From Chloroflexia bacterium (lineage in GTDB: Bacteria; Chloroflexota; Chloroflexia; DTKN01), in assembly GCA_049970175.1 (NCBI GenBank), contig JBMFNL010000001.1:364-64363 (forward strand): DNA of 64,000 nt, given 5' to 3'. Positions within the stretch are counted from its first letter, which is position 1; every line of letters starts with the position of its first letter. The position numbers were made by a program, and so were the translations under genes. The notes under the pieces were generated by a model, which was not told where the DNA came from, searched no databases, and worked only from the letters and a program-made list of their open reading frames with translations. Positions 18,430 to 38,359 of the stretch are shown here, one piece after another.

Positions 18430-18516
18430 CCGGTAAGAAGACAGGGGATCGCCAGTGATCTCCGGGTATGGCCTGTGGAGACAGGGGATAGTGGCCGGTT
18501 CCCTGTCTTCTTCCGT
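18430..18516 (+). promoter_or_regulatory. Structured spacer between rpmF and fabH: a 15/16-bp imperfect stem plus a 12-bp direct repeat
   Basis: cggtaagaagacagggga pairs with tccctgtcttcttccg around a ~50-nt loop. AGACAGGGGAT occurs twice. No T-run follows. Confidence 0.3.
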
Positions 18517-18545
18517 TGCCGGCACGGGCTCCACGGGAGAGGCCT

Positions 18546-19538
18546 ATGGCGCGCTATGCGGCCATTGCCGGGTGGGGCAAATATCTACCCCAGCGGGTGC
18601 TGACGAACCAAGACCTGGAGCGGATGGTGGACACTTCAGACGAGTGGATTCGCACCCGAACCGGCATCGTCGAACGGCGCCTGGTAGACGATGGGGAGGC
18701 GGCCTCCACCATGGCCGTCCGAGCCGCCCGCCAGGCCCTGGAGCGCGCCGACCTGCCGGCTTTTGCCCTGGACCTCATCATTGTGGCCACCTCCACGCCC
18801 GATTACCTCTTTCCGGCCACGGCCTGCCTGGTGCAGGATGCGCTGGGGGCGATTCACGCCGGCGCCTTTGACCTGGAGGCAGCCTGCTCCGGCTTTCTCT
18901 ACGCCCTGACCGTGGGCACCCAATTCGTCCGCAGCGGGATGTACGAGAACGTCCTGGTCGTGGCTTCGGAGGCCCTTTCCCGCATCACCAACTGGGAAGA
19001 CCGCAACACCTGCGTCCTGTTTGGCGACGGGGCCGGCGCGGCCGTGTTGCGGCCGACCTCGCAGCGGAGGGGTTTGCTGGCCTCCACCCTGGGGGCTTAC
19101 GGCGCCGGCAGCGATTTGCTCATCATGCCCGCCGGGGGAAGCGCCCGGCCGGCCTCCCTGGAGACGGTCGCCGGCCGGCAACACTATATCCATATGAAGG
19201 GCAACGAGGTCTTTCGCTTCGCCGTGCGTTCGATGGGCCAGGCCACCCAGGAGGTGCTGAAACAGGCCGGCCTGGGGGTAGAGGACATCTCCCTCTTCGT
19301 CCCCCATCAGGCCAATTTGCGCATCATCGAGGCCCTGGCCGAGCGGCTGGGCCTGCCGATGGAGCGTATCTTCGTCAACCTGCACCGCTACGGCAATATG
19401 TCGGCGGCAACGATTCCGGTGGCCCTCTGCGAGGCCGCGGAGGAAGGCCGGCTGAAGGAAGGCGACATCGTCGTCACCACGGCCTTCGGAGCCGGCCTCA
19501 CCTGGGCCGCCGGCGTCATCGTCTGGGGCGGCATCTAG
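18546..19538 (+). CDS. fabH: 3-oxoacyl-ACP synthase III
   Basis: MARYAAIAGWGKYLPQRVLTNQDLERMVDTSDEWIRTRTGI...; active-site Cys in ...EAACSGF... Confidence 0.9.
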   Translation: MARYAAIAGWGKYLPQRVLTNQDLERMVDTSDEWIRTRTGIVERRLVDDGEAASTMAVRAARQALERADLPAFALDLIIVATSTPDYLFPATACLVQDALGAIHAGAFDLEAACSGFLYALTVGTQFVRSGMYENVLVVASEALSRITNWEDRNTCVLFGDGAGAAVLRPTSQRRGLLASTLGAYGAGSDLLIMPAGGSARPASLETVAGRQHYIHMKGNEVFRFAVRSMGQATQEVLKQAGLGVEDISLFVPHQANLRIIEALAERLGLPMERIFVNLHRYGNMSAATIPVALCEAAEEGRLKEGDIVVTTAFGAGLTWAAGVIVWGGI

Positions 19539-19599
19539 ACCGTTCCCCCATTCGCACGTTCACACGCAACACGCAACACGAAACAAAAAGGAGGCCCAA

Positions 19600-20574
19600 A
19601 TGTCCTCACCTCCTCCCGTAGACGTCGCCTGGCTCTTCCCCGGCCAGGGCTCTCAATGCGTCGGCATGGGCCGGGACCTGGCCGAGGCCTTCCCTGACGT
19701 GGCCGGCCTCTACCGGCAGGCCGACGCCCTGCTGGGGGTGACGCTCTCCCGGCTCTGTTTCGAGGGGCCGGAGGAGGAACTGACCCGGACGATCAACGCC
19801 CAGCCGGCCCTGCTCACGACCAGCGTGGCCGTCCTCCTGGCCCTGGGCGGCCGGCTCGACGAGAGGGGATACCTGCACCGGCCGGAGCGCCTTCCCCGCC
19901 CGTCCCTGGTGGCCGGCCACAGCCTGGGGGAGTATACGGCGCTGGTGGCGGCCGGCGCCCTCCCCTTCCCGGAGGCCCTGCGCCTGGTGCGGGAGCGCGG
20001 CCGGCTGATGGGCGAGGCCCGCTCCGGGACGATGGCCGCGGTCATCGGGCTGGAGGAGGAGGCGCTGGAGGGGATCTGCCAGGCCTGTGGGGCCGAAGCG
20101 CCGCTCGTGATCGCCAACTACAACTGCCCCGGCCAGTATGTCCTGAGCGGGGCCACCGAGGCGGTGGAGAGGGCAATGGAGGAAGCCCGGAAACGGGGGG
20201 CCCGGCGCGTCATCCCGCTCCGGGTCAGCGCCGCCTTCCATTCGCCGCTGATGCAGGAGGCCGCCTCCGGCCTGGCGCGGGCGGTAGCGACGGCCGCATT
20301 TTCCCCGGCGGCTATTCCGGTGGTGGCCAATACCTGCGCCCGGCCACTTTCCCAGCCGGAGGCGTTCCGCGAGGAACTGATTGCCCAGGTTTGCTCCCCG
20401 GTGCGCTGGAGCGCTTCCCTGGAATATATGTGGAAGCAGGGGGTGCGCCGTTTCCTGGAGATCGGCCCCGGCACCGTCCTGGCCGGCCTGGTCCGCCGCA
20501 CCCTGCCGGAAGCAAAGGTGCAGAGCGTGGGCACGCTGGCGCAGGTACAGGCCCTCCTGGAGAGCGAACGATAA
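19600..20574 (+). CDS. fabD: Malonyl CoA-ACP transacylase
   Basis: VAWLFPGQGSQCVGMG...VAGHSLGEYTAL...; AAGGAGG SD. Confidence 0.9.
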   Translation: MSSPPPVDVAWLFPGQGSQCVGMGRDLAEAFPDVAGLYRQADALLGVTLSRLCFEGPEEELTRTINAQPALLTTSVAVLLALGGRLDERGYLHRPERLPRPSLVAGHSLGEYTALVAAGALPFPEALRLVRERGRLMGEARSGTMAAVIGLEEEALEGICQACGAEAPLVIANYNCPGQYVLSGATEAVERAMEEARKRGARRVIPLRVSAAFHSPLMQEAASGLARAVATAAFSPAAIPVVANTCARPLSQPEAFREELIAQVCSPVRWSASLEYMWKQGVRRFLEIGPGTVLAGLVRRTLPEAKVQSVGTLAQVQALLESER

Positions 20575-20593
20575 TTTCAAGTCGGAGGAAAGG

Positions 20594-21349
20594 ATGGCCG
20601 GACGTCTGGAGGGGCAGGTCGCGCTGGTCACCGGGGCCTCGCGGGGCATCGGGCGGGCCACGGCGCTGGCGCTGGCGCGAGAAGGCGCCGCCGTGGTGGT
20701 CAACTTCCGGGAACAGGCGGAGGCGGCGGCCGAGGTGGTGCGGGCCGTTGCGGAGGCCGGCGGCCGAGCGCAGGCCCTGCAGGCCGACGTGACCGACGCC
20801 AGGGCCGTGCGCCGGATGGTGGACGAGGCGCTGGCCGTCTACGGGCATATTGACATCCTGGTCAACAACGCCGGCATCTCCCGAGACCGGGTGATGTTGC
20901 AGATGAGGGAAGACGACTGGCGGGCGGTCCTGGAGACGAACCTGACGGCAGCCTTCCTGTGCAGCCGGGCGGTGTTGCGCCCGATGATTCGGCAGGGCTA
21001 TGGGAGAATCGTCAACGTATCCTCGGTGGCCGGCCTGGTGGGAAACGTGGGCCAGGCCAACTATGCGGCGGCCAAGGCCGGCCTGATCGGCCTGACCAAG
21101 ACGATGGCCCGCGAACTGGCCGCCCACGGCATCACCGTCAACGCCGTCGCTCCGACCTATGTCGAGGGAACCACCCTGTTCAGCACCGTGCCCAGGCAGG
21201 TCAGGGAATGGGCGCTGACCATTATCCCCATGAAGCGCTTTGCCCGCCCGGAGGAGGTGGCGGCGGCCATCGTCTTCCTGGCTTCGCCGGAGGCCTCGTA
21301 CATCACCGGCCATGTCCTGGTGGTAGACGGCGGGATGACCTGTCCGTAG
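20594..21349 (+). CDS. fabG: 3-oxoacyl-ACP reductase
   Basis: MAGRLEGQVALVTGASRGIGRA...NISSVAGLVGNVGQANYAAAKAG...; GGAGGAAAGG SD. The listed ORF 20381.. has a junk N-terminus. Confidence 0.9.
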   Translation: MAGRLEGQVALVTGASRGIGRATALALAREGAAVVVNFREQAEAAAEVVRAVAEAGGRAQALQADVTDARAVRRMVDEALAVYGHIDILVNNAGISRDRVMLQMREDDWRAVLETNLTAAFLCSRAVLRPMIRQGYGRIVNVSSVAGLVGNVGQANYAAAKAGLIGLTKTMARELAAHGITVNAVAPTYVEGTTLFSTVPRQVREWALTIIPMKRFARPEEVAAAIVFLASPEASYITGHVLVVDGGMTCP

Positions 21350-21374
21350 CGCTGCTGGCACGTTGAGGTCGGCT

Positions 21375-21872
21375 ATGCCGGAAAGTGAAGCCGGCCTTGG
21401 GCCGGTGGAAGCGGTCATCGAGAGTCCCCGGGGCAGCACGGTGCGCACCGTGTTTGAGCCGGGGACGGGTTGGGTGCAGGCGGGGCCGGCCTTCCCCCGG
21501 CCGCTTCCGGCCGAGTACGGCCACCTGCCCGGCACCTACAACCCGGCCGACGGCAACCCGGTGGACGTCATGGTGATCGGCTACGGGCCCACCTTCCCCG
21601 GCTGTCGCTATCGGGTGCGGGCCATCGGGCTGCTCCTGCGGGCCGACGGGGACCACAAGGTACTGGCCGTGCCCCATACGGCGGAATATGTTTCCCCGCT
21701 GCGGGACCTTTCCGAGGTCTCGGCGGAGGTGCTGGCCGAACTGGAGGACTGCTTCGGCCGGCACTTCCCGTTGCTGGGCTGGCGAGATGCCCGCCGGGCA
21801 GAGGAATGGATCGTCATCTGCCGGGCCGTGGCTGAGGTGAGAGAAGCCCGGATGAAGGACCGGGCGAAATGA
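21375..21872 (+). CDS. ppa: Inorganic pyrophosphatase family I-like protein (divergent)
   Basis: VIESPRGSTVRTVFEP...NPADGNPVDVMVIG...VLAVPHTAEY... aligns with PPase motifs VIEIP.GS..KYE / DGDPVDVLV / LVAVPH. DGDP is replaced by DGNP. Confidence 0.55.
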   Translation: MPESEAGLGPVEAVIESPRGSTVRTVFEPGTGWVQAGPAFPRPLPAEYGHLPGTYNPADGNPVDVMVIGYGPTFPGCRYRVRAIGLLLRADGDHKVLAVPHTAEYVSPLRDLSEVSAEVLAELEDCFGRHFPLLGWRDARRAEEWIVICRAVAEVREARMKDRAK

Positions 21873-21882
21873 GGAGGTCGAG

Positions 21883-22635
21883 ATGTGCGGGCGGCTGGAT
21901 GGCAAAGTGGCACTGGTGACCGGAGCGGCGCGGGGTATCGGCCGGGCCATCGCCCTGCGCCTAGCGGGGATGGGGGCGGCGGTGGCGGTGAACGACCTGG
22001 CCGGCGAGGAGGTCATCGGCGCGGTGGTGGCCGAGATCGAGGCGGCCGGGGGCAAGGCCCTCGGGGTGCGGGCCAACGTCAGCATCGCTTCCGAAGTCGT
22101 GGCGATGGTGGAAAAGGTTGTGGCCACGCTGGGCGGGCTGCACATCCTGGTGAACAACGCCGGCATCGCCCGCGACATGCTCCTCCTGCGCCTTTCGGAG
22201 GAGGACTGGGATGCCGTCCTGGCCACCAACCTGAAGGGGGCCTTCCTCTGCTCCCGAGCGGCCCTGCGGCCGATGATTCGGGAGCGCTGGGGGCGCATCG
22301 TCAACATGGCCTCGGTGGTGGGCATTGCCGGGAATGCCGGCCAGACCAACTATGCGGCGGCCAAGGCCGGCCTCATCGGCTTCACCCGCAGCCTGGCCAA
22401 GGAGGTCGGCTCGCGGGGCATCACGGTCAACGCCGTGGCCCCCGGCTTTATCGCCACGGCGATGACGGCCGGCCTGCCCGACAAGGTCCGGGAAGAAATC
22501 ATCTCCCGGACGCCGCTGGGCCGGCCGGGCCAGCCGGAGGACGTGGCCGCAGCGGTGGCTTTCCTCTGTTCGGAGGAGGCCGGCTTCATCACCGGCCAGG
22601 TACTGGGGGTGGACGGCGGCCTGGTGCTGATGTAG
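21883..22635 (+). CDS. SDR-family 3-oxoacyl-ACP reductase paralog
   Basis: MCGRLDGKVALVTGAARGIGRAIAL...NMASVVGIAGNAGQTNYAAAKAG...; GGAGGT SD. Confidence 0.85.
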   Translation: MCGRLDGKVALVTGAARGIGRAIALRLAGMGAAVAVNDLAGEEVIGAVVAEIEAAGGKALGVRANVSIASEVVAMVEKVVATLGGLHILVNNAGIARDMLLLRLSEEDWDAVLATNLKGAFLCSRAALRPMIRERWGRIVNMASVVGIAGNAGQTNYAAAKAGLIGFTRSLAKEVGSRGITVNAVAPGFIATAMTAGLPDKVREEIISRTPLGRPGQPEDVAAAVAFLCSEEAGFITGQVLGVDGGLVLM

Positions 22636-22640
22636 AGGGG

Positions 22641-22883
22641 CTATCCCCCGGCCACCGGGGGAAAGAGGGCCACGCGGTCGCCGTCGCGCAGGAGGTAGCC
22701 TTCCTCCTGGCGGCGGTTGTTGACAAAGGCCGTCTTCAGTTCCTCCGGGGGGATGCCCAGCCGGGCGAAAAGTTCGCCCAGACGGGTCCCGGCCGGCAAT
22801 TCCAGGGAAAGCGGCGTGCCGGGCGGTGCCGGAGGAGCATATTTGCGCAATGTGGCGTAGAGGCGCACCTCGACGCGGATCAT
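22641..22883 (-). CDS. MoaD/ThiS-family sulfur-carrier-like protein (C-terminal Gly-Gly)
   Basis: MIRVEVRLYATLRKYAPP...DGDRVALFPPVAGG; AAGGAG SD. Confidence 0.65.
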   Translation of the reverse strand: MIRVEVRLYATLRKYAPPAPPGTPLSLELPAGTRLGELFARLGIPPEELKTAFVNNRRQEEGYLLRDGDRVALFPPVAGG

Positions 22884-22884
22884 C

Positions 22885-23163
22885 CTACTCCTTCGCCTGG
22901 ACAAAGTACCACCGGTACAGCAGTTGCATATCCTCGGGGAAAACGGCCAGCCGGTCGCCGTCCCGCACCCGGCGGCTCAGGGCCGAGTACTGCCAGTTCA
23001 GGAAGATGTTGCTGCCGACTTCCTCCAGGGGAATCCCCAGACGTTCCAGCACCCGACCGATGGTGTCTTCCTCCTGGACCGGGACATAGACGATAGAGAG
23101 AGCGTCCGGGTCCTGCTTCGGGGCGAAGCGTCGCAGTTTGCCGTAGAGGTGCACTTCGATCAC
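22885..23163 (-). CDS. MoaD/ThiS-like beta-grasp protein lacking the terminal Gly-Gly
   Basis: VIEVHLYGKLRRFAPKQDPDALSIVYVP...DGDRLAVFPEDMQLLYRWYFVQAKE. Probable GTG start after a REP-like palindrome; the longer ORF 22885..23250 reads through the palindrome. Confidence 0.45.
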   Translation of the reverse strand: MIEVHLYGKLRRFAPKQDPDALSIVYVPVQEEDTIGRVLERLGIPLEEVGSNIFLNWQYSALSRRVRDGDRLAVFPEDMQLLYRWYFVQAKE

Positions 23164-23187
23164 GTCCGTCCTTCCCTCACCCCTCAC

Positions 23188-23236
23188 CCCCTGCCCCTCT
23201 CCCCTCTCCCAATGGGAGAGGGGAGAGGGGGGCGGG
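23188..23236. repeat. GC-rich palindromic REP-like element (CCCTCTCCCCTCTCCCAATGGGAGAGGGGAGAGGG)
   Basis: Perfect 15-bp arms. Related copies at ~38139-38200 and ~38296-38345. Lies between the aor stop and the moaD-like gene. Confidence 0.6.
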
Positions 23237-23237
23237 T

Positions 23238-24983
23238 CTAGAATGCCCAAACGCTGTCCAGCGCCTCGTCCGGCACGTCCCAGACCTGGTTGTGGGGCGG
23301 GAGCGGCTCGTAGCGCATGAACTCGGGCATGCGGTCGTCCTGCTTGGTGAAGCCGGCCGCCTCGTCAAAGGCCCGCTCCGTCTTCAGGATTTCCTTGCCG
23401 ATGCGGGTGACGTCGTCGGCCGTCCAGTTCGTCCCCAGGAGGGCGGCGCAACTCTCCACCATCCCCTCGAAGCCCTCGGGGATATCCAGGATGGCGAAGG
23501 CGATGAAGAGGCAGTAGCCGGAGGAATCGACGAAGGCGGTGGCGATCTGGAAGTTGCGGGAGAGTTCGGCCTTGCCCTCGGGGGTCAGCGGGTCGGCCTT
23601 GCCGCCGACGGAGAGGATCTCGGGGGCGATGGTGTAGCCGATGGTGTGGTCGGCCCCCTGGGGGTTGGTGGCATAGGTGACGCCGATGCCCTTGACGGCC
23701 CGCGGCTCATAGGCCGGCATGTTCTGCCCCTTGACCCCGGGCACGCGGATGACGCCCAGGGCCCGTCCGGTGAAGGCGGCCCCCTGGCCCAGGATGCGTC
23801 CGAGCGGCGTCCCCCGGCCGATCTCGTGCAGGAGTTCGATGGCCTTTTGCCCGTCGCCGAAGGCGGCCAGGCCGCCCTCCATGGCCACGGCGATGGTGCC
23901 GCCGGCCTCGATGGTATCCAGACCGTAGTCGTTGCACAGGCGAATCAATTCACCGGTCACGTCCAGGTCGTCGATGCCGCAGTTGGGGCCAAAGGCCCAG
24001 ACCGATTCGTACTCCTGGACCGAGACGTGCTCCGTGCCATCGGGCTTGGGCCAGACGTTGGAGCACTGGATGATGCAGCCGGGGTGGCAGGGGTGGCCGG
24101 TTCTGCCGGCGCCGCCGCGCTTCTTCACCCCCTCGGCGATGGCCTCGCCGGAGACCTTGGGGGCGCCCTCGAACGTGCCGCTGGAGAAGTTGCGGGTGGG
24201 CAGTCCTCCGGCCTCGTTGAGGATATTGATGAGCACGGCCGTCCCATAGGAGTTCAGGGCGCCGCCCTTCTTGGTGACGGCGTGGGTGCGCAGGGCTTCA
24301 GATAGTTTACGGGTGCCCTCGCGGAAGCGCTCCGGGTCGGCGATGGAGACGCCGGGGCTGCCGGTTTCGTCCACCACGATGAACTTGAGGCCCTTGCTGC
24401 CCAGGACGGCCCCCATGCCGCCGCGGCCGGAGTAGCGGCTGGGCCGGCCGTCGATGTCGTTGAAGCAGACGCCGGCCATGGCCATGCGCATCTCCCCGGC
24501 CACGCCGATGCCCATGATGGCCACCTGCTTCCCGAAGCGCTGGAAGAGGGCCGGGTAGGCCGCATAGAGCCCTTGGCCGACGTACTCATCGGCCGGGAGG
24601 AACTCGGCGCCGTCCTTGGTCACGTGGAGAATCCAGAACCGGCCCTTTTCCTTGGGATAGCCCTCGACGACGATGGCCTTGATGCCCAGGCGGGCCAGTT
24701 GCTGGCTGAAGGGGGTTCCGGCATTGCTTTCCTTGATCGTTCCGGTGAGGGGCGATTTCCCACCCACGGAGATGCGCCCGGAGGAGGGCGCGTTGGTGCC
24801 GGAGACGATGCCCGGGGCCAGGATGACCTTGTTATTGGGCCCCAGGGGATGGCAGGTTGGGGGCACTTCATCGGCGGTGATAGCGGAGGTCAGCCAGCGC
24901 CCACCCATCCAGCGGTACTTTTCCGGCACTTCCTCGAAGGTCGCCGTCCGTTCGGTCATATTGACACGCAGAATCTTGGCCAT
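23238..24983 (-). CDS. aor: Tungsten-containing aldehyde:ferredoxin oxidoreductase (AOR family)
   Basis: MAKILRVNMTERTATFEEVPEKYRW...; AOR N-terminal and C-terminal domain motifs (e.g. ...GxGGC...). Start taken at 24983 (GGAGGTG SD). Confidence 0.85.
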   Translation of the reverse strand: MAKILRVNMTERTATFEEVPEKYRWMGGRWLTSAITADEVPPTCHPLGPNNKVILAPGIVSGTNAPSSGRISVGGKSPLTGTIKESNAGTPFSQQLARLGIKAIVVEGYPKEKGRFWILHVTKDGAEFLPADEYVGQGLYAAYPALFQRFGKQVAIMGIGVAGEMRMAMAGVCFNDIDGRPSRYSGRGGMGAVLGSKGLKFIVVDETGSPGVSIADPERFREGTRKLSEALRTHAVTKKGGALNSYGTAVLINILNEAGGLPTRNFSSGTFEGAPKVSGEAIAEGVKKRGGAGRTGHPCHPGCIIQCSNVWPKPDGTEHVSVQEYESVWAFGPNCGIDDLDVTGELIRLCNDYGLDTIEAGGTIAVAMEGGLAAFGDGQKAIELLHEIGRGTPLGRILGQGAAFTGRALGVIRVPGVKGQNMPAYEPRAVKGIGVTYATNPQGADHTIGYTIAPEILSVGGKADPLTPEGKAELSRNFQIATAFVDSSGYCLFIAFAILDIPEGFEGMVESCAALLGTNWTADDVTRIGKEILKTERAFDEAAGFTKQDDRMPEFMRYEPLPPHNQVWDVPDEALDSVWAF

Positions 24984-25073
24984 TTCCAACACCTCCATCG
25001 CCGTCAAAAGTCCATACCGGTAAGGAACAAACGCGGCATCACCTCCTTTCAGAACGCCGATCGGTGGGCCGAT

Positions 25074-25121
25074 AAAAAAGGAGACCCATAGCCCCGGCCG
25101 TAGCCTGAGCGATGGATCTCC
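25074..25121 (-). terminator. Intrinsic terminator as riboswitch expression platform (GGAGATCC...GGGTCTCC + TTTTTT)
   Basis: An 8-bp stem whose 5' arm is the AAAGGAGATCC 3' end of the putative aptamer, followed by a T6 run. About 95 nt upstream of the aor start. Confidence 0.45.
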
Positions 25122-25232
25122 TTTCCGTATTGGGAGGCACGGCCGTTTCCAGCCGTACCCTACCGGCTGGCGGGGCATGGGTTTCCCTGTAGCCACCGCA
25201 GCTCGGAGATCGCTTTTGGGATGTTAAACCGC
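25114..25232 (-). promoter_or_regulatory. Candidate Moco/Tuco (molybdenum/tungsten cofactor) riboswitch in the aor leader
   Basis: The minus strand reads ...aucuCCGAGCugcgg...GUGCCUCCCAAUACGGAAAGGAGAucc, recalled from memory as the conserved 5' and 3' blocks of the Moco RNA motif (not database-checked). The cofactor-dependent enzyme sits immediately downstream. Confidence 0.5.
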
Positions 25233-25289
25233 CGGACATCGTCCTACCCTATTTATACCACGCCGTTCCCCGAAAGTCAATAGGTTTCC

Positions 25290-25712
25290 CGGCGATTTCG
25301 GAGCCGTCGGCGCGAAACCGCGCCTTTCCTTGGGAATATCCCCAGCCAGGGCGTCGCCCTCTACTGTGCGACCAAGTCGTTCCTGGAGGCCCTCACCACG
25401 GCCCTCTATCGGGAATTGCGGGGAACGGGGGTCTGGGTCAGCGTCGTCAAGCCGGGGCCGGTGACCACCGAGTTCTTCGACCGCTCCGCGTCGGCCGGGC
25501 TGCGCATGCCGGCCGAACGCTTCGCCATTTCGCCGGAATGTGTGGCGGAACAGGTCGGGCGACTCCTGGGCCGTCCACGTCGCGTGGTCTATGTGCCCGG
25601 GTGGTATCGGGTCGTCCCCTGGGTGGAAATTCTCCTGGGCTGGGCGATGGATCGGGTAGGCCCCTTGCTCCTGCGCTACCAGGTCCGCGCCGGGCAGGCG
25701 GTTCGTTCCTGA
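25290..25712 (+). pseudogene. 3'-fragment of an SDR-family oxidoreductase (no N-terminal Rossmann half, no start)
   Basis: The frame is open only from 25284. Translation ...LGNIPSQGVALYCATKSFLEALTTALYRELRGTGVWVSVVKPGPVTTEF... gives the YxxxK catalytic motif and PGxV C-terminus; about 140 aa of N-terminus are missing. Confidence 0.45.
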
Positions 25713-27036
25713 GCGTAGAGGTGGGCCGGCGCGGCTCGACCAGCACCCAGGAGATCAGAAAACTGCCCAGCGCCAGGGCCGTAGCCGCCAGAAAAAGGAC
25801 CTCGTACCCCAGCGCGGCGGCCAGCCCGCCTCCCAGGATAGTGAGCAGGCTGAGCAGGCCGGCGATGGTATTGACCAGGCCCAGGCCGGCGGGCCGCTCC
25901 GGTTCGGGCAAAAGTTCCAGGACGTAACTGCCGATGCCGATGCCCTGGGCCGCATTGCCCAGCCCGGAGAGGGCAAAGACCAGGGCGAAGAGGTAGGTGC
26001 GGGCCGGAAGAGGGAGGGCCAGCACCTCTCCCAGAAAGGGCAGGAGCAGGGCCAGGACGGGGGTGAGGGTCAGCAGGCCGGCCCCCCAGCGCAGGAGCAG
26101 CCGGTTGCCCCGGCGGTCGCTCAGCCGGCTCCAGACCAGGTAGGAGGCCAGTCGCACCGCCGTGATGGCGGCCATATAGTCCCCGATGAAGCCGGCCGGC
26201 ACATGGAGCGCCTGGCCGGCATAGACGATGTAGAACGGCTCGGCCACCAGCCCCAGCCGGGCCAGCACCCGGTAGGCCAGGAAACGACGTAGAGGAGGAT
26301 GCTCCCGCCAGAGCGCCGGCAGCCGGCGCAACTGCTCCACGAGCGTCCCCGAACGTCCCACCCGAGGCGAATGTGGTTCCACCAGCAGAGAGAAGGTGAT
26401 CAGGCCCAGCAGCGCGCCGACCAGGGCCAGCCCGAAGAGAAGGGCATAGTTCTGCGGGAAGGGGCAGGGGCTGTCTTCCTGTAGCAGCATCCTCAGCAGG
26501 GGGCTGACCAGGAGCAGGGTGAGCAGTCCGCCGCCGAACTCCCGCAGCCCGAAGAAGGTGCCGCGCCGCTGGGGAGGAATGGTCTTGGCCACCACTTCCT
26601 GGAACGGAATCCCGGCCAGGCCGGCGGAGATGGAATAGAGGCCGTAGAAGAGGATGAACAGGGCCAGGGCAGCGGCAGGGGAAACCAGGTGGGCCAGGGC
26701 TACCGCGGCCGCCATGGCGCCGAAAAAGGCCCCGCGCAGCACGGCCGTGACCCGATACAGGGGCAGTTTACGGGGACGGTCCTGGATGCGGGCCCCCACC
26801 AGCAGTTGCGGGAGCAGCCATCCCCCCTGCTCCAGGGCCGGCAGGAGGCCCACCAGCATATCCCCCCCACCCAGGGCCTGCACCAGCCCGGGCAGGACCA
26901 GCGTGCTGGAGATCAGGCCGGAAGAAACGTTGAAAAAAATGCCGTTGAGGACGCCCAGGAAAAAGTTGCGGCGAAAGGTGGGGGAAAGCGCGGCCTCCGG
27001 GCCGCCCGAAGAAGCGGAAGGACGGGCCTCTTCCAT
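25447..27036 (-). CDS. MFS transporter with ~95-aa low-complexity C-terminal tail
   Basis: 12 predicted TM helices. After the last TM (…FLISWVLVEP) the ORF continues as an R/P-rich tail that is antisense to the SDR fragment. Confidence 0.75.
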   Translation of the reverse strand: MEEARPSASSGGPEAALSPTFRRNFFLGVLNGIFFNVSSGLISSTLVLPGLVQALGGGDMLVGLLPALEQGGWLLPQLLVGARIQDRPRKLPLYRVTAVLRGAFFGAMAAAVALAHLVSPAAALALFILFYGLYSISAGLAGIPFQEVVAKTIPPQRRGTFFGLREFGGGLLTLLLVSPLLRMLLQEDSPCPFPQNYALLFGLALVGALLGLITFSLLVEPHSPRVGRSGTLVEQLRRLPALWREHPPLRRFLAYRVLARLGLVAEPFYIVYAGQALHVPAGFIGDYMAAITAVRLASYLVWSRLSDRRGNRLLLRWGAGLLTLTPVLALLLPFLGEVLALPLPARTYLFALVFALSGLGNAAQGIGIGSYVLELLPEPERPAGLGLVNTIAGLLSLLTILGGGLAAALGYEVLFLAATALALGSFLISWVLVEPRRPTSTLRNEPPARRGPGSAGARGLPDPSPSPGEFPPRGRPDTTRAHRPRDVDGPGVARPVPPHIPAKWRSVRPACAARPTRSGRRTRWSPAPA

Positions 27037-38255: not shown

Positions 38256-38295
38256 GGGTCAACCTCCATGGCCCTCACCCCTCACCCCCCGACCC

Positions 38296-38345
38296 CCCTC
38301 TCCCCTCTCCCATTGGGAGAGGGGAGAGGGGGGCAGGGGGGAGAG
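38296..38345. repeat. REP-like palindrome (CTCTCCCCTCTCCCATTGGGAGAGGGGAGAGG), same family as 23188-23236
   Basis: Lies between the stop of the DUF457 gene and the start of the LTD/PLD gene. A degenerate copy at 38139-38200 is inside the LTD/PLD coding region (encodes PNPLPLHWGREQGEG). Confidence 0.55.
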
Positions 38346-38359
38346 AGGTGAGGGCAAAT

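Follow-up and report, generated by a model that had tools for sequence, protein, structure and literature searches.

The region of interest lies mainly on the minus strand of the window, by which we mean the whole 64-kb stretch of DNA that was analysed, and it consists of a leader with an RNA aptamer and an overlapping terminator, an aldehyde:ferredoxin oxidoreductase (AOR) gene, and two genes for small beta-grasp proteins, here designated X1 and X2. The features are listed in the direction of transcription.

25252-25280, minus strand: putative sigma-70 promoter, with -35 TTGACT (25280-25275), a 17-nt spacer and an extended -10 TGgTATAAA (25260-25252), from sequence reading.
25102-25216, minus strand: Moco/Tuco riboswitch aptamer, P3-less variant, from the RF01055 covariance model.
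25116-25121, minus strand: P1 3' strand GGAGAU, the switching sequence common to P1 and the terminator 5' arm.
25074-25123, minus strand: intrinsic terminator, in which a stem of AAGGAGAUCCAU ... AUGGGUCUCCUU encloses an inner stem-loop and U6 follows.
25038-25050, minus strand: GAAAGGAGGUGAU box, fully complementary to the canonical 3' tail of 16S rRNA.
24990-24996, minus strand: AOR ribosome-binding site GGAGGUG, 6 nt before the ATG, from sequence reading.
23238-24983, minus strand: gene of the AOR family, encoding 581 aa and of the single-subunit type ("class I WOR/WorL"), from Pfam.
23173-23230, no strand assigned: REP-like palindrome between AOR and X1, from the sequence.
22885-23163, minus strand: X1, a 92-aa beta-grasp protein, Ub-Mut7C/MoaD-like (PF14451).
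22641-22883, minus strand: X2, an 80-aa ThiS/MoaD-family protein (PF02597).

An earlier sequence-only reading of this DNA had placed a tungsten-type AOR gene downstream of the leader, and the Pfam matches bear this out: AFOR_N (PF02730) scored 206 bits over residues 3-206 and AFOR_C (PF01314) 274 bits over residues 225-576. The closest solved relatives were 9mqx_D (E 1e-93) and the P. furiosus AOR 1aor (E 8e-84), and residues 1-563 align with solved AORs. An AOR start further upstream was corrected to the ATG at 24983; residues 1-581 were matched from the identical start in 80 related AOR loci, and GGAGGUG or GGAGGUA is kept upstream of the AOR start in relatives. As judged from its family membership, the enzyme would carry a tungsto-bispterin and oxidize aldehydes.

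The same reading had described two small MoaD/ThiS genes, one ending in Gly-Gly and one not, and this description proved correct. X2, which ends in ...FPPVAGG, scored 39.4 bits against the ThiS family PF02597 (cut-off 22.5), and its matches to MoaD and SAMP1 were C-terminal and below the curated cut-offs, as was that to the NCBIfam moaD model. X1, which ends in FVQAKE, scored 50.3 bits against PF14451 (Ub-Mut7C) and only 18.8 bits against ThiS, below the cut-off of 22.5; it is a member of PF14451, not of ThiS. A MoaD/SAMP1-like fold is predicted for X1 (AlphaFold pLDDT 87), with SAMP1, P. furiosus MoaD and TtuB as the best Foldseek matches; a sequence search against solved structures gave no significant match, and X1 was placed by the fold search only. 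Among 502 X1 homologues YGKLRRF is invariant and GSNIFLNWQYS nearly so, the conserved tail reads FP(D/E)DMQLLY(K/R)WYF, and a Gly-Gly end occurs in no homologue of the alignment. X2 starts 1 nt past the X1 stop, a spacing that suggests translational coupling of the two. In roughly half of the 80 related loci the X1-X2 pair lies directly 3' of AOR, and genes of the X1 and X2 types are spread sporadically across distant phyla.

AOR-linked MoaD genes have been described as aorD/aorE of Aromatoleum aromaticum (PMC6365974), as "WorX" in the class I WORs (PMC13328260) and in the mobile cluster of AOR and MoaD genes that Iyer et al. 2006 reported (PMC1779556), and their products have been proposed to act in tungsten-cofactor synthesis or maturation (PMC1779556, PMC6365974, PMC13328260). 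The gene content here fits these published clusters, and the earlier idea of a cofactor-sensing operon is supported: ThiS/MoaD-fold genes lie directly 3' of the AOR catalytic subunit, and there are two of them, as in aorDE. Unlike these systems, however, the window AOR is of the single-subunit type, with no AorA or AorC partner genes within the operon, and the distinction that X1 presents, a highly conserved Gly-Gly-less protein of PF14451 rather than ThiS, is not reported in the 3 papers cited (PMC1779556, PMC6365974, PMC13328260).

The minus-strand leader carries AUCUCCGAGC ... GUGCCUCCCAAUACGGAAAGGAGAUCC, in which the sequence-only reading had recognized blocks of the Moco RNA motif. When the 64-kb window was searched against 4227 families, the proposed covariance-model check was strongly positive, RF01055 matching at 25216-25102 (minus strand) with 65.1 bits (gathering score 36; E 2.1e-13 for this search); a custom model gave 124.5 bits. 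The match extends over the full model, positions 1-135, with the P3 positions aligned to gaps, and the spacing from CUCCGA to GCCUCCC is 70 nt in the window versus over 85 nt in examples that have P3. The helices P1, P2, P4 and P5 of the family are all present, with AUCUCC (25210-25205) as the P1 5' strand, bulged nucleotides on both strands of P2, where a tetraloop receptor would be expected in this family, and a GAAA tetraloop of the GNRA class on P4. So are the family boxes CUCCGAGC, AGGG, GCCUCCC and GGAAAGGAG, which are invariant in 10 type-A sequences. The leader is thus a genuine Moco-family riboswitch aptamer without the P3 stem, that is, of the "Tuco/Wco" type; the absence of P3, which had been suggested as a diagnostic, places it in the subclass that Regulski et al. 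2008 associated with tungsten-cofactor genes (PMC2408646).

The aptamer sits between the sigma-70-like promoter and the 3 genes, 119 nt 5' of the AFOR_N+AFOR_C gene on the same strand, a position matched in 30 related loci. We assembled 32 homologous leaders, comprising 30 AOR leaders from Chloroflexota MAGs, the window, and one leader before another operon; AOR proteins of the leader-bearing relatives are 69-94% identical to that of the window. In an alignment of these leaders that was fitted to the model, 94.6% of cells were paired and 22 of 31 pairs had changed on both sides, compared with 42-45% paired in slid alignments, and none of 500 shuffles matched the observed score. These compensatory changes support the helices P1, P2, P4 and P5. 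Two AOR-linked aptamer subtypes could be distinguished, one of which scored only 35-44 bits against the RF01055 gathering score of 36, or was unreported.

Upstream of the aptamer, the -35 and extended -10 elements resemble a sigma-70 promoter, and TGnTATAAT or TATAAA occurs in relatives at an equal distance 5' of the aptamer. A simple promoter scan of the leader listed no promoter, since under its rule the sixth base of the -10 hexamer has to be a T. Next to the promoter lie a truncated and divergent (plus-strand) fragment of an SDR gene and the end of a rearranged MFS gene.

Downstream, AAGGAGAUCCAU (25123-25112) pairs with AUGGGUCUCCUU (25089-25078) in a 12-bp basal stem that is surmounted by an inner stem and followed by U6 (25079-25074). 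The hairpin and T-run noted earlier are therefore real, although an 8-bp hairpin understated the size. The calculated folding energy of the hairpin is -31.6 kcal/mol, and compared with shuffles the leader as a whole folds with a z-score of -4.78. A simple promoter and terminator scan caught only part of the hairpin, not significant alone; the real evidence is its conservation across the 32 homologous leaders. In 31 of these by one classifier, and in 30 by a second, the P1 3' strand forms the base of a U-tailed hairpin, and the overlap holds in two divergent aptamer types. Moreover, the base after GGAG (A/G) co-varies across loci with both the P1 5' strand (U/C) and the terminator 3' arm (U/C).

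Since the P1 3' strand GGAGAU is itself the base of the terminator 5' arm, P1 and the terminator are mutually exclusive. The folding of aptamer against terminator that had been proposed earlier agrees with this: the minimum-energy fold of the full leader (-85.3 kcal/mol) contains the terminator and no P1, and enforcing P1 costs 15 kcal/mol, whereas in folding of the nascent transcript P1 belongs to the minimum-energy fold as long as the terminator 3' arm has not been made, and gives way thereafter. The suggestion of a transcription terminator as expression platform was thus well founded, down to the nucleotides shared with P1; terminator-type platforms have also been noted for the Moco motif in general (PMC2408646).

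Because the 2 structures exclude each other, a ligand-stabilized P1 should block termination, and we consider it likely that this leader, a P3-less Moco-family riboswitch of the putative Tuco/Wco-sensing subclass, is a transcriptional ON switch; the sequence-only reading had named no direction of switching. Transcription would start ~30 nt upstream of the aptamer, which would fold first, closed by P1 (AUCUCC/GGAGAU). About 30 nt after P1, AUGGGUCUCC+U6 would be transcribed and could pair with GGAGAU and the next CCAU, giving the much more stable terminator. With no ligand, the terminator would displace P1 and transcription would end at ~25074; with cofactor bound, P1 would be locked, the hairpin could not reach the U-tract, and the polymerase would read on to yield transcripts of AOR, the Gly-Gly-less X1 and the MoaD-type X2. 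Apo-enzyme and dedicated MoaD-like helpers would thereby be made only when the pterin cofactor is present. It speaks against this reading that the thermodynamics strongly favours the terminator, so that activation would need kinetic trapping of the 6-bp P1 (10 bp with an AGCG/CGCU extension), which is plausible. The pbuE (ydhL) adenine riboswitch of Bacillus subtilis, a textbook transcriptional ON switch, works in this manner: its P1 3' strand lies in the terminator 5' arm, ligand-stabilized P1 is the anti-terminator, and the decision is kinetic, falling in the brief time before the polymerase has made the terminator 3' arm. The likeness is one of mechanism, the aptamer and ligand being unrelated and implying no family membership. 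It also counts against the ON reading that X2, a putative cofactor-synthesis protein, would have its expression promoted by its own end product, a positive feedback that another MoaD elsewhere in the genome would be needed to prime. As the ligands are unstable, Moco or Tuco has never been seen to bind RNA directly in any member of the family (PMC2408646, PMC11672702).

The components of this locus, namely riboswitch-controlled aor genes, AOR-linked MoaD pairs (AorD/E, "WorX") and REP-like hairpins, have all been described before; an explicit description of an ON-type Moco/Tuco switch was not found in the literature searched. The E. coli moaA element has P3 and a ribosome-binding site hidden in P1, and translation is repressed (PMC2408646), whereas in the window, from a Chloroflexota MAG host, P1 competes directly with a terminator and activation is predicted. 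Similar in arrangement are aorA1, aorA2 and aorA3 of Pelobacter carbinolicus, which belongs to another phylum: these AOR genes, too, have been predicted to lie under Moco-type riboswitches, with transcription-level control predicted and its direction not stated (PMC3543383).

We compared the leaders with a contrast set of pattern-selected metagenome matches, for which gene calls were crude and the same stricter classifier was used. Among the matches listed were 85 canonical Moco RNAs, 47 with separate downstream terminators and 35 with no terminator, many of the latter having a start codon 5-12 nt after P1. The 3 remaining "overlap" calls were rejected on inspection, a separate inner terminator being present in each. 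The genes 3' of these RNAs encode mainly PBP_like_2/SBP_bac_11 binding proteins (tupA/modA-like), MoaA and MoeA. P3-less RNAs among the matches listed often precede binding proteins with an ATTTS motif, presumably the TupA signature. It appears, then, that supply genes have OFF-type platforms and the consumer enzyme an ON type, one aptamer serving opposite logics.

The leader could also be an ON switch that lacks specificity for the tungsten cofactor and responds instead to Moco, to metal-free molybdopterin or to both metal forms; we think this unlikely. P3 loss is tied to Tuco by no more than a cross-genome correlation, which has exceptions (PMC2408646), albeit near perfect in 2008, and when P3 was deleted from the E. 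coli RNA, regulation was lost and specificity did not change. Some AOR-family enzymes, such as YdhV, load Mo (PMC13328260), as against the characterized class I AORs, which are tungsten enzymes (PMC13328260, PMC12096430), and the frequent position of P3-less metagenome RNAs (matches listed) before ATTTS-motif proteins also points to tungsten. Among the ~39 ORFs scanned in the 64-kb window we found no moaE, no E1-like MoeB/ThiF gene, no other Moco-biosynthesis gene and no tungstate-specific gene such as those for transport (tupABC, wtpA), and so tungsten use by the organism is something we infer from the AOR family and the P3 correlation.

We regard as improbable an OFF logic, by which the cofactor would promote termination and AOR and the MoaD-like genes would be repressed when cofactor is abundant. 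Such a logic would agree with the behaviour of moaA, the sole experimentally characterized member (PMC2408646), and with the end-product repression usual for a gene like X2, which resembles a biosynthetic sulfur carrier; in many type-B loci, however, the riboswitch governs AOR alone, with neither X1 nor X2. A separate anti-terminator is also missing here, the terminator 5' arm being the P1 3' strand itself: once formed, P1 strips 6-10 bp off the hairpin base and leaves the U-tract 6 nt from the residual stem. The OFF-type relatives among the metagenome matches listed differ in just this respect, their hairpin being independent and downstream of P1. That the aptamer is an inactive relic, with hairpin and U6 either attenuating constitutively or ending a transcript from upstream, might be suggested by the rearranged genes that adjoin the promoter, but it is very improbable given that every conserved family position is intact (65 bits), that compensatory changes keep both aptamer and terminator overlap among loci with 69-94% identical AOR, and that the SDR fragment points away (plus strand) while promoter-like sequence lies directly 5' of the aptamer.

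Returning to the ON switch, we note that the GAAAGGAGGUGAU box between the terminator and the true ribosome-binding site has no properly spaced start codon, and that it recurs at this place in all long-leader relatives, with both aptamer types. It is possibly a STAB-SD-like ribosome-binding stabilizer. When the leader was folded over its whole 286 nt, no clear structure emerged for this box or for the AOR ribosome-binding site. A leader peptide after the GGAGGUGAUG box was considered and rejected: the ORFs of 10-13 codons are alike in the window and one close relative (L002) and unrelated in an equally close one (L001), and the start codon would be only 2 nt from the SD core, so that a non-coding SD-like box is preferred.

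A wider generalization seems to us quite possible, if somewhat short of probable: AOR-linked Moco-family riboswitches would form a distinct cofactor-activated ON variant with two aptamer subtypes, often followed by an anti-16S "decoy" Shine-Dalgarno box and licensing apo-enzyme synthesis, and X1 would be a non-covalent tungsten-enzyme maturation factor rather than a sulfur carrier. The locus can be annotated firmly in the genome of an uncultured member of the Chloroflexota, with a cofactor-sensing leader, a tungsten-type AOR and two MoaD-like companions. If the ON wiring is true, a reporter that is on with cofactor would give a positive, selectable read-out of Tuco versus Moco sensing. X1, being strongly conserved and devoid of Gly-Gly, offers a defined target for study of the role of the "WorX/AorD/AorE" proteins linked to AOR.

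The palindrome in the AOR-X1 spacer has a core (23194-23230) with perfect 18+18 nt arms, CCCCTCTCCCCTCTCCCA / TGGGAGAGGGGAGAGGGG, plus one outer arm, GGGTGAGGGGTGAGGG, and is not followed by a T-run. The guess that it is REP-like was right, as the identical 37-nt core recurs at 38295-38331, where it is embedded in a complete palindrome of 85 nt (38271-38355), both copies lying between genes; the core pattern gave 14 matches at up to 3 mismatches versus 2.2 expected. It resembles REP-type intergenic palindromes in being a GC-rich perfect palindrome within an operon, repeated elsewhere and lacking a U-tract, but differs from those families in that only two copies are visible here. Relatives carry other GC-rich hairpins at the equivalent AOR-X1 spot, and such a hairpin after AOR would probably protect the AOR segment of the mRNA and lower the expression of X1 and X2.

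We searched for all 4227 Rfam families over the full 64 kb of the window and obtained four matches at gathering level: three tRNAs, and the molybdenum/tungsten cofactor riboswitch aptamer RF01055 at 25216-25102 on the minus strand (65.1 bits; gathering score, 36; E 2.1e-13), which spans model positions 1-135 and lies ahead of the aldehyde:ferredoxin oxidoreductase (AOR) gene. Blocks of this leader had been likened to the Moco (molybdenum cofactor) RNA motif, and they are the real family signature, because the RF01055 alignment contains the conserved segments CUCCGAGC, AGGG, GCCUCCC and GGAAAGGAG. Helices P1, P2, P4 (with a GAAA loop) and P5 were all found in the window aptamer; the P3 hairpin is absent and aligned to gaps, as in the tungsten cofactor (Tuco) variant that the sequence-only reading had suggested. 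We are nearly certain that the leader element is a riboswitch of the Moco/Tuco family; specificity for tungsten is the somewhat favored reading, tungsten use by this organism being argued from the AOR enzyme family and from the P3 correlation.

The features of the AOR operon, with the 2 small genes (X1 and X2) that follow AOR, are as follows.

25280-25252, minus strand: putative promoter, TTGACT-17-TGgTATAAA, read from the sequence
25245-24981, minus strand: 5' leader, read from the sequence
25210-25205, minus strand: P1 5' strand, AUCUCC, pairing with GGAGAU
25121-25116, minus strand: P1 3' strand, GGAGAU, pairing with AUCUCC
25123-25112, minus strand: terminator 5' arm, AAGGAGAUCCAU, pairing with AUGGGUCUCCUU around a small inner stem-loop
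25089-25078, minus strand: terminator 3' arm, AUGGGUCUCCUU, pairing with AAGGAGAUCCAU
25079-25074, minus strand: U6 after the terminator stem
24983 (ATG) to 23238, minus strand: AOR gene, behind GGAGGUG; Pfam AFOR_N and AFOR_C
23163 (GTG) to 22885, minus strand: X1, 92 aa; PF14451 (Ub-Mut7C), below the ThiS cut-off, without Gly-Gly
22883 (ATG) to 22641, minus strand: X2, 80 aa; ThiS/MoaD family, Gly-Gly end

The putative promoter was not listed by the promoter scan, whose rule is stricter, and relatives have TGnTATAAT at the matching position. P1 of the window can be extended by AGCG/CGCU. The solved structures nearest to the AOR are 9mqx_D and P. furiosus AOR (1aor), and the X1 stop is separated from the X2 start by 1 nt. 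The convergent FabG-like gene (21883-22635, plus strand) has its stop 5 bp from that of X2, and no terminator-like structure was seen between the 2 stops (22635-22641).

The proposal that the leader hairpin and its T-run form a terminator platform was borne out: the 3' aptamer strand lies within the 5' arm of the hairpin, which is followed by U6. The terminator hairpin has a folding energy of -31.6 kcal/mol, and the leader is far more stable than its shuffled versions (z = -4.78). P1 and the terminator are mutually exclusive because the same six nucleotides are used by both, and folding of the alternatives indicated which of them is favored at each stage. In the minimum-energy fold of the full leader (-85.3 kcal/mol) the terminator is present and P1 is absent, and enforcement of P1 costs 15 kcal/mol. 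In folds of the nascent transcript, P1 belongs to the minimum-energy structure once its 3' strand is made, and the structure flips to the terminator when the terminator 3' arm emerges, approximately 30 nt after the P1 3' strand. Were P1 to be held, the residual stem would end 6 nt short of the U-tract and intrinsic termination would be impossible; ligand-locked P1 would then serve as the anti-terminator of a transcriptional ON switch, in which cofactor permits read-through. The pbuE adenine riboswitch, a transcriptional ON switch in which ligand locks P1 as the anti-terminator, works in the manner proposed here for the AOR leader. Judging from the structure, ON is the probable direction of control.

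With the AOR protein as query, we collected 80 related loci from species-representative genomes, mostly Chloroflexota MAGs together with Bipolaricaulota, Bathyarchaeia and Thermotogae; the best identities, 94% and 93%, were both in genomes labelled 'Chloroflexia bacterium'. Contigs DAOUAK010000151 and JASFBA010000077 represent the nearest relatives. An Rfam scan of the first 17 loci placed RF01055 immediately 5' of AOR in nine. A covariance model built from the aptamers of related loci, and then used to search the loci, found the aptamer in 32 sources, namely the window, 30 loci where it directly precedes AOR, and one locus (L005) where it precedes an operon other than AOR. Type A (the window and 10 loci) scored 62-72 Rfam bits in the nine loci scanned. 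Type B (21 loci), a divergent subtype without P3, is marked by CCUCCGAC, GCCCGCC...GCAAAGGAGG and a P4 loop of GCAA; on re-scanning of seven type-B loci, four gave 35-44 bits, to be read against the gathering score of 36, and three went unreported even at E <= 1. Many such aptamers would escape standard annotation.

Across the 32 aptamers, 94.6% of cells were paired (slid controls, ~44%) and both-side changes occurred in 22 of 31 pairs, in an alignment that was fitted to the model and is biased toward structure. The P1 3' strand formed the base of a long hairpin ending in a U-run in 31 of the 32 leaders, and a second, independent classifier found the P1/terminator overlap in 30. The base that follows GGAG (A or G) covaries with two partners, one in the P1 5' strand and the other in the terminator 3' arm.

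Some details of individual loci may be recorded here. Type-B aptamers, located ~70-380 nt 5' of AOR, occur in L013, L014, L018, L020-L022, L024, L029, L032 and L033, and further in L038, L041, L042, L045, L049, L053, L058, L062, L069 and L072. In L005 (77-187 and 1500-2080), a type-B aptamer with an ON-type terminator stands before two ORFs, which from their translations we judged by eye to be small Molydop_binding-like and then radical-SAM/SPASM-like; just 5' of AOR in the same locus, the terminator 3' half and an GGAGGUGGUG box are kept and the aptamer is unrecognisable. In L014 (266-838, minus strand), a T-box leader (94.7 bits) adjoins a 6S RNA (69.3 bits) ~3 kb 5' of the AOR leader.

As a contrast set, metagenome contigs were scanned once with the pattern GCCTCCCN{5,8}GGAAAGGAG, which yielded at least 120 loci; among the matches listed, 85 had a P1 5' strand upstream. 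With the classifier used for the AOR leaders, 47 of these 85 canonical Moco RNAs had a separate terminator downstream of P1 and 35 had none, many of the latter with a start codon 5-12 nt after P1. Overlap was scored in the other 3 and rejected on inspection, an independent inner terminator being present in each. The first ORFs after the Moco RNAs listed were mostly binding proteins (PBP_like_2/SBP_bac_11), MoaA (Radical_SAM + Mob_synth_C), MoeA, permeases and TonB receptors; cofactor-using enzymes were few, and no AOR was among them. In the data at hand, from a pattern-selected sample with crude gene calls, platforms of OFF type (cofactor represses) stand on supply genes and those of ON type on AOR, which we regard as supporting evidence and not as proof. 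Such a division fits the biology, in that import and synthesis would be stopped when cofactor is plentiful and apo-enzyme made only with cofactor. In 2 of the metagenome loci, two Moco-motif matches stand in tandem before one gene (L154, 7311-7642, 310 nt apart; L176, ~580 nt apart), and in L129 two lie ~7.2 kb apart.

The RNA family, its P3-less subclass, the link of the latter to Tuco-using enzymes and the terminator platforms have been described (PMC2408646), as have aor genes under riboswitch control (PMC3543383) and AOR-linked MoaD pairs; the leader and operon are therefore a correctly identified further instance of the described riboswitch-aor-MoaD arrangement. That AOR leaders consistently show ON-type wiring goes beyond the published accounts we found: reviews and the original riboswitch paper (PMC2408646) present repression only, and a cofactor-dependent activating RNA has been hypothesised only for E. 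coli torCAD, of unrelated sequence (PMC10845959).

The two small genes after AOR are of the beta-grasp kind, as had been read from the sequence, X2 being ThiS/MoaD with a Gly-Gly end and X1 lacking Gly-Gly. In roughly half of the 80 loci, in distant phyla including archaea, the pair lies directly 3' of AOR, and its presence is independent of that of the riboswitch. It matches a mobile cluster reported as the 'distinct set of MoaD genes strictly adjacent to AOR' (PMC1779556), the MoaD-like aorD/aorE of A. aromaticum, whose products are missing from the purified enzyme (PMC6365974), and the 'WorX' carried by class I WORs, of function unknown there (PMC13328260). For X1 we detected 502 homologues, with YGKLRRF invariant, GSNIFLNWQYS nearly invariant, and a conserved tail FPDDMQLLYKWYF standing where the Gly-Gly end would be; its predicted fold is a MoaD/SAMP1-type beta-grasp (pLDDT 87), with SAMP1, P. 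furiosus MoaD and TtuB as best Foldseek matches. Our working view is that X2 would serve pterin synthesis as its dedicated sulfur carrier, and that X1, which cannot be thiocarboxylated, more likely acts by partner binding.

The palindrome between AOR and X1 (23173-23230), earlier guessed to be REP-like, is indeed a repeated element, with a 37-nt core identical to 38295-38331. The second copy (38271-38355), in the gap separating two genes of the minus strand, is a complete 85-nt palindrome whose 42-nt arms show 90% complementarity; one outer arm is gone from the copy that follows AOR. Relatives have other GC-rich hairpins at this position. No U-tract follows the AOR-X1 palindrome, which for that reason is less likely to be a terminator; by analogy with REP elements, it is more likely a structure that stabilises the mRNA or dampens expression.

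Between the terminator and the true AOR ribosome-binding site lies a conserved GAAAGGAGGUGAU(G) box (25038-25050, minus strand), found also in L001, L002, L003, L006, L010, L011 and L013, and further in L014, L015, L016, L020, L029, L032 and L035. The box is perfectly complementary to the canonical 3' tail of 16S rRNA and mimics the aptamer 3' end GGAAAGGAG, and no start codon lies at a usable distance from it. A similar element is STAB-SD, an mRNA stabiliser of B. thuringiensis cryIIIA.

A Pfam scan of ~39 window ORFs found fatty-acid synthesis enzymes, PEP carboxykinase, pyruvate kinase, LexA and DXP synthase among them, and no Moco biosynthesis, MoeB/ThiF, MoaE or tungstate/molybdate transporter gene; the AOR cassette stands isolated in a housekeeping neighbourhood. 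The fatty-acid synthesis cluster (18492-22635, plus strand) runs FabH-like, FabD-like and then two FabG-like reductases, with an inorganic pyrophosphatase gene separating the last two. At the upstream border of the AOR cassette, the short-chain dehydrogenase encoded by 25284-25712 (plus strand) is reduced to its C-terminal half (…YCATK…VVKPGPVTTEFF…), which opens just after a stop codon adjoining the riboswitch promoter, and the Arg/Pro-rich tail of an MFS transporter ORF (25447-27036, minus strand) runs antisense through it. The truncated dehydrogenase and antisense tail suggest a past rearrangement at this edge.
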